Of a stretch of 64,000 nt of DNA, positions 34,269-37,053 are shown in pieces. Source of the DNA: Escherichia coli (lineage in GTDB: Bacteria; Pseudomonadota; Gammaproteobacteria; Enterobacterales; Enterobacteriaceae); the NCBI RefSeq assembly GCF_044324875.1, contig NZ_CP172185.1; one strand, 5' to 3'. The translations under genes were made by a program, and so were the position numbers. The notes beneath the pieces were generated by a model. That model had not been told where the DNA came from. It searched no databases and saw only the letters and a list, made by a program, of their open reading frames with translations. The stretch's first letter is position 1. Each line of letters begins with the position of its first letter.

Positions 34269-34661
34269 TTACCAGTTCGCCGGGTAGCATGGCCAGCAAA
34301 GCCAGGCATCGAGCACCCGGGTTTCACTGACGGCCGCTGCATAGACGCCGGTATCCGGGAAGAAATAAACCGGGGTGGCGTTGTTCAGCTGGTCGCCTTC
34401 ATCGGCCAGAGCGCCGATCACCTCATGAGGCTTAAGCAGCATATCCGTTAAATATTCATCCGGGTGGATGGCATTCAGCGATATGGCCATCTCCAGAAAT
34501 TCATCCAGGATATGGCGGGTACGATACCCCCGGAAAACCTCGTATGAAGGCGTGACGCATTCACCATCCAGGGAACAGGCATCGTAACCGGCCAGCTGCT
34601 CTTCGGTGAGTCCGGAGGCATGCTTTGCCACAAGATTCGTAAATTGCTCTTTATCGTCCAT
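34269..34661 (-). CDS. hypothetical acidic protein (130 aa)
   Basis: Track ORF 34269..34700; AAGGA SD supports ATG at 34661 (MDDKEQF); no family recognised. Confidence 0.4.
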   Translation of the reverse strand: MDDKEQFTNLVAKHASGLTEEQLAGYDACSLDGECVTPSYEVFRGYRTRHILDEFLEMAISLNAIHPDEYLTDMLLKPHEVIGALADEGDQLNNATPVYFFPDTGVYAAAVSETRVLDAWLCWPCYPANW

Positions 34662-35246
34662 CACAATCCTTACGCTGTAGGGGCCTGTTTGTGTTATCAC
34701 TGCTTCCGGTTTTTACTTCGCACAACCCGGCAGGTATCCGGTCGCCCGGGCGTCCTTTGCGGTCTTGTTCGCCCTTCGCCTGAATTACGTCAAATCCCTT
34801 TCACTACCCGGCCGCAGGGTGACACCTCCCCTTTTCTCCGGAAGCGAAAGAGGAAGAACAGTTTAACAGCCCGGATCCTCAATAATTTTCGCGTAACGGA
34901 CTAAATAACCGGTTTATGCAGCTTCTGATAACCACAGACCGCGATAGAATAAAACGTCTGGTGAGGAACCGGAGTGTTATGTAAGCGGGGGGTTTAACTG
35001 GGTATCTGTGTAGTCCTATTTAGCCAGATATCCCGAATAAAAACCTCAACGATTAGGTAAACGAAATGGATGGATTCTGGTCGATGTTCTGTTTGTTTGT
35101 CGTGGTAGTTTCACTGTATAAAGCCCTTTCTGTAGCAGCAGCACGAGCAGACGCAGCAAAATTAAATATGCTTCTCAGAATGAGAAAGTTTAAAAAGTAG
35201 CTTTCAAGACATCTGAGAATTCTTTTAAATCCTCAGAGGAAGTTAT

Positions 35247-35402
35247 ATGTTTATTACAGATGGTATGGTTCGTGTTTTTGTTTATTCGATGGCAACTGTA
35301 CTCTTTCTGCCGCTTGGCTTGTTGAAAAGCACGTGGTGGTTTTCACCATTGTTTGCGATAGCTGCTATTGATTACTTAATGTTTCTGCGTCGACAAGGCT
35401 AG
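35247..35402 (+). CDS. small hydrophobic protein (51 aa)
   Basis: Below track size cutoff; GAGGAAG SD 5 nt before ATG; two predicted membrane helices (MFITDGMVRVFVYSMATVLFLPLGLL...FAIAAIDYLMF). Confidence 0.3.
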   Translation: MFITDGMVRVFVYSMATVLFLPLGLLKSTWWFSPLFAIAAIDYLMFLRRQG

Positions 35403-35732
35403 TTGCTGAACCTCATACCTCAGAGCAATCTGTATGTTTTTTACACCACTGGTTAAAAGGTCAGGCTACATTCCTGACGTTTTTTAAAAAACAGTTTTAT
35501 GTTTGATGCGTTACTGGTCTGTCTGGTAACCCAGTGGTACATTACCATTATTAAAGCTGGCTGGCGGTGGTGCATCATGCTTAAACGACCCTCTCAGAGC
35601 GTACTTTCCGACAGTCCTGTGCACCACTTACCCGGCAGGCCTATGTCTTGGTTATTCTTCGTTGTACCTTTTTCTTCAGCTTTATCCCTGACATGTCTGT
35701 CTGAACAGTTCTAAGCAAACCGGAATGTTGTC

Positions 35733-36074
35733 ATGGCCAAAGTACAAGGGCTCTTTGTTGGATACCGAAAATTCGCTGTTGATCGCGACTGGCTTCGTCA
35801 GCAGGAAGAACAACGTTATCGGGATCGCCAGCGACAATTTGATGAATGGTCCAGGAAATGGGTCACTGTAACCAGGCTCAAAGAGACTCGTTTATGGACT
35901 GACGGAGCCATCAGGCGATGGTTGGGTGAACCTCAGCAGCAGGGTAAATATAAAGTTTTCCCCGTTGAAGCGGTTTTGGCTGCTGAGAAGTTGAATGAGT
36001 TTCGGCTCTGGCTTAAACTCCGACTGGAAAAGAAACGTGCCCAGCACCACCACTTTTTAATTCCATTTCTGTAA
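35733..36074 (+). CDS. hypothetical basic protein (113 aa)
   Basis: ORF track; Arg/Gln-rich, weak SD; no family recognised. Confidence 0.3.
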   Translation: MAKVQGLFVGYRKFAVDRDWLRQQEEQRYRDRQRQFDEWSRKWVTVTRLKETRLWTDGAIRRWLGEPQQQGKYKVFPVEAVLAAEKLNEFRLWLKLRLEKKRAQHHHFLIPFL

Positions 36075-36165
36075 AGTAGAAACAACGGCAGTTCCGGCCG
36101 CATTCAAGGCTTCGGCATCTGGTCAGAAATAAAGCGCCATTTTTCAGTATAAGGGAGGTTAGATA

Positions 36166-36357
36166 GTGGAAGGTATTGAGACACTGAGTTTGCAGCTTGA
36201 TGAGAATGAAACTATGGCCCTTGCTCAATTAGTTAAACGTCTGAGCTGGAGCGATCTTCGTGGCTGTGCTGTGAGTGACGAAGAAGCCTGGGTAATGAAA
36301 AGCGCAATTGAAAAATTACAACAGGCGTTAAGGGAAGAAGGTTATGCGCCTCGATGA
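36166..36357 (+). CDS. hypothetical small protein (63 aa)
   Basis: GTG start with GGGAGG SD 8 nt upstream; followed by an 8-bp-stem hairpin at 36478-36499. Confidence 0.4.
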   Translation: MEGIETLSLQLDENETMALAQLVKRLSWSDLRGCAVSDEEAWVMKSAIEKLQQALREEGYAPR

Positions 36358-36597
36358 GGCTGGCTTCGTTCTTTATTCCGATAACAAATTTGCTTAAGGA
36401 CTAACTATGAGCCAGCACTGGTATGAGGTGAAAAGCAATCAGGGAATTGTTCAGGTGATTGTTGGGAGAAGATATTAATGTAATGCGTTTCTGCATTACA
36501 TCAAGCAGATTAGCTTTTTCTGGTCAAAATAGACGATGTGATTTTTCTTTCGCCGAACTCCATCCGCTCCCCACGCAACCGGTAAAGGTTCGCAGGT

Positions 36598-37053
36598 TTA
36601 ATAAAGATAGGTTTCGTATCTCCCTAAGGGTGGGATGGGTAAACTCATAATGGCATCTGTGTTTACTATGTAAGTATTCGGGTAAAATTCATCTAATACA
36701 GTAAAGTTTAGTTTCTTACAAAAGCTTAATAAATATGGGTTTTTCACGTCTTCTATTACAACATCGCACCAGGGATTCGATTCACAGCAAAGCTTCAGAA
36801 AAGACTTAAACCATCCCTTGTTTTGTATTTCTTCCGGAAGCCGTACCACATGTATGGTCAGACAATCTCCATGATAACGATTAGTACTTTGTCTAAGCCC
36901 TACAACAATCCCCTTTTCTTGAATCTGTACACCTGCCTGATGCTCTTTCATGTCGGGCGTATAGTGCCTTGCTCTGTTTAACCAGGCCACCAGCTGCTGA
37001 GCCGTACTTGGTGATTCTTCAGCTATCCATTTCAGGTACTTGATGCGGTCCAT
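36598..37053 (-). CDS. hypothetical protein (151 aa), possible acetyltransferase-like fold
   Basis: GGGAGG SD 6 nt upstream of ATG; segment IQNKGWFKSFLK resembles a GNAT acyl-CoA motif, weak. Confidence 0.35.
   Translation of the reverse strand: MDRIKYLKWIAEESPSTAQQLVAWLNRARHYTPDMKEHQAGVQIQEKGIVVGLRQSTNRYHGDCLTIHVVRLPEEIQNKGWFKSFLKLCCESNPWCDVVIEDVKNPYLLSFCKKLNFTVLDEFYPNTYIVNTDAIMSLPIPPLGRYETYLY

Follow-up and report, generated by a model that had tools for sequence, protein, structure and literature searches.

A Probable Patchwork of Independent Small Genes beside the ter Operon of an IncHI2 Plasmid Backbone

Introduction

The described systems that come closest to the small genes considered here belong to several quite different classes. 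In toxin-antitoxin modules that pair a ribbon-helix-helix (RHH, DUF1778) antitoxin with a GNAT toxin, the antitoxin gene precedes the toxin gene and overlaps it, and the catalytic tyrosine of these toxins occupies the “FY” position of helix α4. The AtaT, KacT, and TacT toxins acetylate charged tRNA. The HEPN-MNT and other HEPN pairs are compact two-gene cassettes on mobile elements, the type I toxins Hok, TisB, and Ldr are short and hydrophobic, and AlpA, TorI, phage Xis, and pSK1 Par typify the winged-helix DNA binders of the MerR/excisionase type. A protein of the Pfam family DUF7706 has been reported to be abundant or highly expressed in carriers of plasmid pOXA-48 (bioRxiv 10.64898/2026.07.12.738056). 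Here, these systems are compared with a 2.8-kb stretch (positions 34,269–37,053) of a window of 64,000 nucleotides of Escherichia coli DNA (contig NZ_CP172185.1), in which four small genes, named orf130, orf113, orf63, and orf151 for the lengths of their products, and two still shorter hydrophobic open reading frames (ORFs) of 44 and 51 codons, the “mini-ORFs,” lie beside terF of the ter operon.

Plasmids of the IncHI2 type are major carriers of mcr, extended-spectrum β-lactamase, and heavy-metal resistance genes, and their backbone is still largely annotated as hypothetical. The part of the window from about 33 to 38 kb is 97–99.5% identical to IncHI2A conjugative plasmids of Enterobacter, Escherichia, Salmonella, and Klebsiella, so that the mobile-element setting proposed in a preliminary description of this DNA can be specified as an IncHI2 conjugative plasmid backbone. 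The reading favored here, with a probability of roughly 0.7, is that the 2.8-kb stretch is a patchwork of this backbone, where four small genes lie side by side, independent of one another, and do not form one system. It is favored because the four genes differ in their distributions, keep no partner outside IncHI2, use both strands, and have been lost in different combinations from sister lineages.

Distribution and Gene Neighborhoods

Among 72,556 plasmids, the four genes are distributed independently of each other. A total of 1461 plasmid records contain orf130, including IncHI1A and IncHI1B plasmids, in which tblastn finds copies of 94 and 61% identity, respectively. The 1590 records with orf113 include some 430 plasmids of Klebsiella and Vibrio with homologues of 50–66% identity, and orf63 is found in 2750 records, among them IncL plasmids of the pOXA-48 type. 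Only 549 records contain orf151. When the neighborhoods of their homologues were compared, no neighboring pair of the four genes was conserved outside IncHI2. The co-occurrence analysis across genomes that the preliminary description had called for thus gives each gene a distribution of its own.

Losses within IncHI2 likewise involve different genes in different lineages. In a Klebsiella variicola plasmid (NZ_CP044051, here L002, positions 6464–7898), about 1.45 kb with genes for 93-, 68-, and 171-residue products lies between orf63 and orf151. The last of these genes, just downstream of orf151 and on the same strand, encodes a RelB domain (Pfam RelB, 2.7e-8). The lineage of the window has lost all three genes, leaving a remnant of the first at the deletion junction (Table 1), and the parts deleted from the block vary among IncHI2 lineages. 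In a large IncHI2 lineage represented by an E. coli plasmid (L024), it is orf151 itself that has been cut to 43 residues, a loss that fits the plasmid counts, with 549 records carrying orf151 and about 1160 carrying orf113 together with orf63.

Several points weigh against this interpretation. Some 1160 IncHI2 plasmids are syntenic in this region, with orf130, orf113, and orf63 always together, so that distribution alone leaves room for a shared role inside IncHI2. No IncHI2 expression data were found, and the literature on the protein accessions and on IncHI2 transcriptomes gave nothing gene-specific. The orf151 product, lacking the usual tyrosine and having phenylalanine in motif A (see below), may not be an active enzyme. 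In addition, two hydrophobic ORFs of 44–60 residues with ATG starts, as in the 779-bp segment that carries the mini-ORFs, are seen in only 0.2% of shuffles that preserve the composition of that segment.

Authenticity of the Reading Frames

All six ORFs of the preliminary description are present where it had placed them, and computed isoelectric points (pI; Table 1) agree with its account of an acidic 130-residue and a basic 113-residue protein. In a near-identical plasmid, RefSeq labels the products of 130, 51, 113, 63, and 151 residues as hypothetical proteins and leaves the 44-codon ORF unannotated. Good ribosome-binding sites, claimed for all four larger ORFs, can be read in the sequence for three of them, with the Shine-Dalgarno motifs AAGGA (orf130), AAGGGAGG (orf63), and GGGAGG (orf151), and also for the 51-codon ORF (AGAGGAAG), whereas those of orf113 and of the 44-codon ORF are weak. 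For orf130, both RefSeq and the homologue in IncHI1B plasmids back the ATG start, and a 143-residue version beginning at a GTG is unnecessary.

The four larger ORFs are genuine genes. This follows from a comparison of the window with the two diverged IncHI2 lineages L002 and L024, in which their ratios of nonsynonymous to synonymous polymorphism (pN/pS) are 0.04–0.35, against about 1.2 in a control ORF that overlaps the start region of orf130 on the opposite strand (Table 1).

Table 1. Features of the region and of the cassettes that contain relatives of orf151; positions are those of the window unless another record is named, and the last column gives synonymous and nonsynonymous changes with pN/pS
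Feature	Position	Strand	Properties	Syn, nonsyn (pN/pS)
orf130	34269-34661	-	130 aa, pI 4.3, WP_000341066	7, 1 (0.04)
Control ORF	34620-34904		opposite strand, overlaps orf130 start region; indels	3, 11 (~1.2)
Lineage-specific segment	34931..35709		779 bp with both mini-ORFs; ~80 bp instead in L002 and L024	
44-aa ORF	35066-35200	+	candidate coding; N-terminal hydrophobic stretch, basic tail; grand average of hydropathy (GRAVY) 0.66, pI 10.3	
51-aa ORF	35247-35402	+	candidate coding; two hydrophobic stretches, good Shine-Dalgarno, WP_001439453, GRAVY 1.0	
Hairpin with T-run	35460..35478	+	terminator-like, after 51-aa ORF; consensus match only	
orf113	35733-36074	+	113 aa, basic, pI 10.5	9, 3 (0.09)
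orf63	36166-36357	+	63 aa, acidic, GTG start	3, 4 (0.35, few changes)
Remnant of 93-aa gene	36407..36478	+	first ~19 codons, at deletion junction; gene intact in other IncHI2 lineages	
12-bp hairpin	36475..36504	-	~94 nt past orf151 stop; z = -2.98 for 146-nt region	
orf151	36598-37053	-	151 aa, WP_000374058	11, 11 (0.26)
9-bp hairpin	37088..37115	-	between terF and orf151; U-rich tail, 10-nt loop; possible terF terminator	
terF, 3' part	37144..38003	-	vWA-TerF-like domain, Pfam PF10138, 1.8e-63; alignment to terF of record L001 ends at 38003	13, 1 (0.02; terF)
terF, 5' (N-terminal) part	39309-39698		beyond IS3-family element	
Cassette, E. coli plasmid	L003 5115-6453		among Abi_2, DpnII, HigB, SLATT genes	
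Cassette, Yersinia island	L008 5251-6954		adjoins Kiwa; 160-aa gene after 15-bp gap	
Cassette, C. freundii plasmid	L025 4166-5450		between resolvase gene and parAB	

When the six products were searched against Pfam, NCBIfam, PHROGs, and PADLOC, the only significant match was that of orf63 to Pfam DUF7706. Searches of Protein Data Bank (PDB) sequences with the four larger proteins gave no meaningful match, and PADLOC returned only chance-level matches (JetB, 1.6e-4, over 38 residues of orf113; SP_VI, 0.008). The earlier statement that no function could be assigned calls for some qualification, as orf63 encodes a DUF7706 protein and a fold can be given to the products of orf151, firmly, and of orf113, tentatively.

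A Divergent GNAT Fold in orf151

Structure models and fold searches confirm the GNAT-like hint noted earlier in the 151-residue protein. An AlphaFold2 model based on the family alignment has a predicted local distance difference test score (pLDDT) of 96 and a predicted template modeling score of 0.90, and all 50 of its top 50 Foldseek matches in the PDB are GNATs, with KacT, AtaT, and TacT (including TacT2/3) coming first at probabilities of 0.99–1.0 and template modeling (TM) scores of 0.39–0.47; about 100 residues superpose at 3–4 Å in the best-superposing chains. The family profile has three matches among PDB sequences, all of them GNATs, the best being PaiA (E = 0.022). Sequence similarity to GNAT families is otherwise faint: orf151 has no Pfam match at E values up to 1, and of 32 family members a few match Pfam GNAT families weakly, the best being Acetyltransf_8 (E = 0.0017) in one member, with none at threshold. 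Thus, the orf151 product is, as judged from the model, an atypical and divergent GNAT-fold protein.

Few proteins belong to this family: phmmer, run exhaustively against 1.8 billion representatives, yielded only 47 clusters at 50% identity, a profile search of genome contigs with the trimmed family alignment found no relative, and tblastn with orf151 found no match in phages. Its conserved core reads LPEE-Q-KGWFKSFL...NPW..IEDV.N..L..F. Motif A takes the form Q-x-K-G-W-F, in which the first glycine is nearly invariant and phenylalanine stands where GNATs have glycine or alanine, and the usual position of the general-acid tyrosine is occupied by cysteine, leucine, or phenylalanine. The protein is a stand-alone, divergent member of the GNAT fold that keeps the glycine and asparagine positions of the CoA-binding motifs; its activity would most likely be acyl transfer from acyl-CoA to some target, and it is dispensable to the plasmid.

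The neighbors of orf151 and its relatives vary across eight contexts. Three unrelated mobile elements (Table 1) encode a GNAT-like relative of 150 residues and 69–76% identity, in each case 15–58 bp behind a gene for a protein of 206–275 residues with an R-x4-H motif. This partner contains the invariant stretch EQIRHVLVHSEGEIE, which includes RHVLVH in all three sequences. No match for it was found in Pfam or in the PDB, also when the partner profile was compared with the PDB, and its two matches to the PADLOC RT-associated-HEPN (RTasHEPN) profile, at E = 0.007 and 0.03, are marginal and come from related sequences. More distant relatives of orf151 have other neighbors or none: one stands alone among prophage tail genes, in the manner of a moron; another has a gene fragment on one side and, on the other, a gene resembling umuC (as judged by eye from the translation); and others adjoin a putative secreted protein, a hydrolase, or an unknown protein of 350 residues. 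An R-x4-H partner was sought for these distant relatives and rejected, as their upstream genes are unrelated, and the cassette is thus a trait of one subclade. In IncHI2 plasmids, orf151 has terF upstream, with 90 bp and a hairpin in between, and there is no R-x4-H gene.

A Probable DNA-binding Protein Encoded by orf113

Homologues of orf113 with 50–66% identity occur in Klebsiella IncHI1B/FIB plasmids and Vibrio plasmids, on a Xenorhabdus contig, and in an integrative and conjugative element (ICE) of Brenneria, where the gene lies beside those for a TraI_2 relaxase and an integrase. The invariant core of the family is TVTRLK..RLWT..AI..WLG.P..QGKYKVF. The products of orf113 and orf130 were modeled with AlphaFold2 as one artificial Gly-Ser-linked chain with block-wise alignments. 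In the orf113 part, pLDDT is 72–94 over residues 21–100, and a long helix is followed by a strand, two helices, a β-hairpin, and two more helices. This core superposes, over 46–49 of 53–57 residues and at 2.3–2.6 Å, on the domains of AlpA, TorI, phage Xis, and pSK1 Par. Foldseek found nothing with the composite model, and comparison of the orf113 profile with PDB sequences gave only weak matches to winged helices of the PadR type (E of about 0.6–1).

These comparisons make it fairly probable that the orf113 product binds DNA via a winged helix. As modeled, it would be a small DNA binder of the MerR/excisionase type with a basic helical tail, perhaps acting as a regulator or an accessory DNA-binding factor of conjugative elements. 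A pairing of orf113 with DUF7706 was also considered and rejected: in Xenorhabdus, Vibrio, Brenneria, and Klebsiella, the genes downstream of the homologues are unrelated to DUF7706, and they are unrelated to each other as well. The homologue on a Klebsiella pneumoniae IncFIB/HI1B plasmid (L033, 4001–5532) is substituted at several otherwise invariant positions, and a canonical DUF1778-GNAT toxin-antitoxin pair follows two genes downstream of it.

The Acidic Proteins of orf63 and orf130

The product of orf63 is a clear member of Pfam PF24806 (DUF7706), which it matches over model positions 6–63 of 63 with E = 1.2e-25 and 89.7 bits, the cut-off being 27. It is 56% identical to the DUF7706 protein of pOXA-48 (IncL), and the two share the C-terminal sequence EEGYAPR; orf63 thus encodes a small acidic protein of a family that IncL plasmids carry as well. 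In a plasmid of the pOXA-48 type (L018, 2541–5174), the operon consists of a gene for a 395-residue RelB-domain protein, a helix-turn-helix regulator gene, genes for a 227-residue protein and a 72-residue membrane protein, and the DUF7706 gene. Transposon sequencing of pOXA-48 has placed orf19 and orf20 in one operon and has shown the XRE-like orf20 to be essential for plasmid maintenance (PMC12365149). As gene order suggests, although the published study does not state it, these two may be the first two genes of the L018 operon.

For orf130, no family or PDB match was found. Its copies in IncHI1A and IncHI1B plasmids lie in another neighborhood, with hha and a gene for a CoiA N-terminal domain, neither of which has a counterpart in the window. 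A protein-database search returned near-identical sequences only, apart from some seemingly distant homologues that were rejected as evidence of real diversity, being frameshifted reads of the same gene. In the linked model described above, its pLDDT is only 24–69, and no fold is predicted. The product of orf130 is thus a conserved acidic protein, confined to the IncHI plasmids (HI2, HI1A, and HI1B) and under strong purifying selection.

The Mini-ORFs and Their Segment

The two hydrophobic small ORFs proposed in the preliminary description are present, and their hydropathy is high (Table 1); they are best regarded as candidate coding sequences. Of 458 plasmids that match the segment carrying them, only 7 have it whole. 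The match in the rest is interrupted at 35246–35253, which in most plasmids is one base before the ATG of the 51-codon ORF, and at the sole junction examined, in record L017 (NZ_MF344582), other DNA replaces the Shine-Dalgarno motif of that ORF. All copies of both mini-ORFs are at least 99% identical. With tblastn, the 51-codon ORF retrieves only copies of at least 95% identity, plus noise and no diverged homologue, and no homologues were found for the 44-codon ORF. The rarity of such pairs among shuffled segments suggests that the mini-ORFs are unlikely to be chance ORFs; at best, they would form a dispensable small-membrane-peptide unit. Just past the stop codon of the 51-codon ORF, at 35418–35445, its Shine-Dalgarno motif and first codons (35231–35258) are repeated with 82% identity.

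Some further details of this segment may be recorded here. The repeat after the stop codon starts an ORF of 17 codons, which extends into the terminator-like hairpin. In L017 (8860–9000), the DNA to the left of window position 35246 includes a helicase gene, IS4321, and Tn3-family genes, and at the junction it ends in the direct repeats CAACCAA(C/G)TTTTGCAC(G/A)AAACGG. The two pieces of the query overlap there by 8 bp (TATGTTTA), which may be a target duplication, and in most plasmids of that lineage the split falls at the same position as in L017.

Plasmid Backbone and Its Interruptions

In annotated IncHI2 records, the gene order runs from hipBA through several hypothetical genes, a trypsin-like protease gene, and five small genes to terF and the remaining ter operon. 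In the window, this backbone is interrupted on both flanks, on the side of terF and on that of the protease gene. An intact IS3-family element (38004–39300) cuts terF at 38003/38004. A second copy of this element, inverted and truncated, lies at 32222–33030 and is itself interrupted by an IS21-like element (30370–32171). The inverted copy truncates the trypsin-like protease gene (33056–33448). An Rfam scan of the window from 30 to 40 kb matched only the frameshift pseudoknots of the IS3 elements.

Two other features lie downstream of orf130. A 157-bp insert at 34076–34232, with AATTCGT at either side, is missing from other IncHI2 plasmids and contains three copies of AAGTTATGTCACTA (34085–34158). 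No plasmid in PLSDB matches it at 90% identity or more, and the best matches, found in 26 large plasmids, cover 110 bp at about 80%. The other feature is a perfect 19-nt inverted repeat (33783–33801 and 34021–34039), with 219 nt between its arms.

Alternative Explanations

That small acidic/basic pairs and membrane peptides might point to toxin-antitoxin, anti-restriction, or anti-defense functions was a suggestion of the preliminary description that finds no support here, as there are no family matches, the distributions are unlinked, no pairs are conserved, and members are missing in sister lineages. In its broadest form, the whole cluster would be a plasmid anti-restriction or anti-defense islet in which the acidic products of orf130 and orf63 act as DNA mimics or inhibitors. 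Both proteins are indeed small and acidic, the plasmid is conjugative, and relatives of orf151 lie in defense-rich neighborhoods, but nothing in the cluster matches a Pfam anti-restriction family or any PHROGs or PADLOC family, the genes occupy both strands beside the ter operon, and no leading-region marker genes were seen in the annotated flanks, all of which leaves such an islet very unlikely. The mini-ORFs could also make up a module of small membrane peptides, such as a type I toxin and its antisense regulator, and their rarity as an adjacent hydrophobic pair on the same strand in shuffled sequence, the good Shine-Dalgarno motif of the 51-codon ORF, the terminator-like hairpin downstream, and the duplication of the start region after the stop codon would all suit such a module. 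It is nonetheless a rather unlikely one, as no Rfam family matches at E values up to 1 (30000–40000), no Pfam toxin family matches significantly, the homologues are near-identical copies only, and the + strand has no promoter match; moreover, two IncHI2 lineages lack the segment, and in most plasmids of its own lineage the match is split at the ATG.

The remaining alternatives concern orf151. According to one, it is half of a two-gene cassette of the toxin-antitoxin or defense type, with the HEPN-like R-x4-H protein as its partner, and the IncHI2 copy is an orphan immunity or “anti-addiction” gene. A wider version holds that the family comprises undescribed GNAT-fold effectors of mobile elements, that its closest members form a new conflict cassette with the R-x4-H protein, and that the IncHI2 orphan neutralizes the partner from a rival plasmid. 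The close pairing in three unrelated elements, which hold the closest relatives outside IncHI2, the invariant EQIRHVLVHSEGEIE of the partner, its weak HEPN matches in PADLOC, and the retention by the IncHI2 protein of every nearly invariant family residue speak for such a cassette, yet both versions are unlikely: the partner lacks a Pfam or PDB match and the sequences behind its two PADLOC matches are related, the remoter family members either stand alone or adjoin other genes, the 90-bp gap to terF has no room for a partner remnant, and the loss of orf151 from one IncHI2 lineage has had no visible consequence. Highly improbable is the proposal that orf151 encodes a toxin of the AtaT/KacT/TacT type that acetylates charged tRNA, with the RelB-domain protein of the fuller IncHI2 form as its antitoxin. 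The best structural matches of orf151 are to KacT, AtaT, and TacT2/3, and in the K. variicola plasmid the 171-residue RelB-domain gene does follow orf151 on the same strand. The lineage of the window, however, deleted the RelB-domain gene and kept orf151, which counts against a RelB-restrained toxin, all the more as orf151 remains intact, with a 100% identical protein in 431 plasmids and all conserved residues kept. Furthermore, the gene order and a spacing of 177 bp are unlike those of GNAT-RHH modules, as exemplified in L033, hhalign comparison of the orf151 family with a DUF1778-linked GNAT gives a probability of 1%, the tyrosine position holds cysteine, leucine, or phenylalanine, and the TM-scores are just 0.39–0.47. 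The patchwork of independent genes thus remains the preferred explanation for the stretch.

Implications

One candidate hidden system can be struck off, and genes of the IncHI2 backbone gain usable labels, with the dispensable ones among them shown. The labels comprise a GNAT-fold family outside Pfam, a probable DNA-binding family common to ICEs, a DUF7706 member, and an IncHI-specific acidic protein. Novelty is modest: it lies in the fold assigned to an uncommon family of GNAT-like proteins, a DNA-binding label, still tentative, for orf113, and the cassette of R-x4-H and GNAT-like proteins, which is present in three other mobile elements and is the one lead that would merit experiment.

Comparison with Known Systems

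Among the systems described at the outset, the type I toxins Hok, TisB, and Ldr resemble the mini-ORFs in being short and hydrophobic, and the mini-ORFs are on a plasmid; the mini-ORFs differ in having no sequence or RNA-family match and no conservation, and no antisense RNA was identified. The likeness to HEPN-MNT and other HEPN pairs concerns the relatives of orf151, where an R-x4-H protein stands ahead in compact two-gene cassettes on mobile elements. In the known pairs, the partner is a nucleotidyltransferase and not a GNAT-fold protein; here, the HEPN fold of the R-x4-H protein is putative, and its gene is absent from the window.

With AtaT, KacT, and TacT, orf151 shares a structural match, a similar size, and carriage on mobile elements. 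It differs from them in having terF upstream in place of an RHH/DUF1778 antitoxin gene, in showing no detectable sequence relation, in the form of its motif A (Q-x-x-G-W-F), in being kept where there is no candidate antitoxin, and in superposing with TM-scores below 0.5. Within the GNAT superfamily as a whole, represented by PaiA (1tiq), Naa50, and SSAT, the orf151 model has the common β4-α3-β5-α4-β6 core, the glycine of motif A, and the asparagine at the start of α4. What sets it apart is a score below the Pfam GNAT thresholds, a model in which no N-terminal strand precedes the first helices, and the very small size of its family.

In the linked model, the predicted core of orf113 seems to follow the strand-helix-helix-β-hairpin order of the MerR/excisionase winged helices AlpA, TorI, phage Xis, and pSK1 Par, and plasmids and ICEs are its carriers. 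Unlike these DNA binders, the orf113 product begins with a conserved segment, FVGYRKFAVD, in its N-terminal part and ends in a long basic helix, and no adjacent integrase gene is conserved. Finally, the DUF7706 family is placed differently in the two plasmid types: in pOXA-48, its gene closes an operon, whereas in IncHI2 plasmids orf63 comes after orf113.

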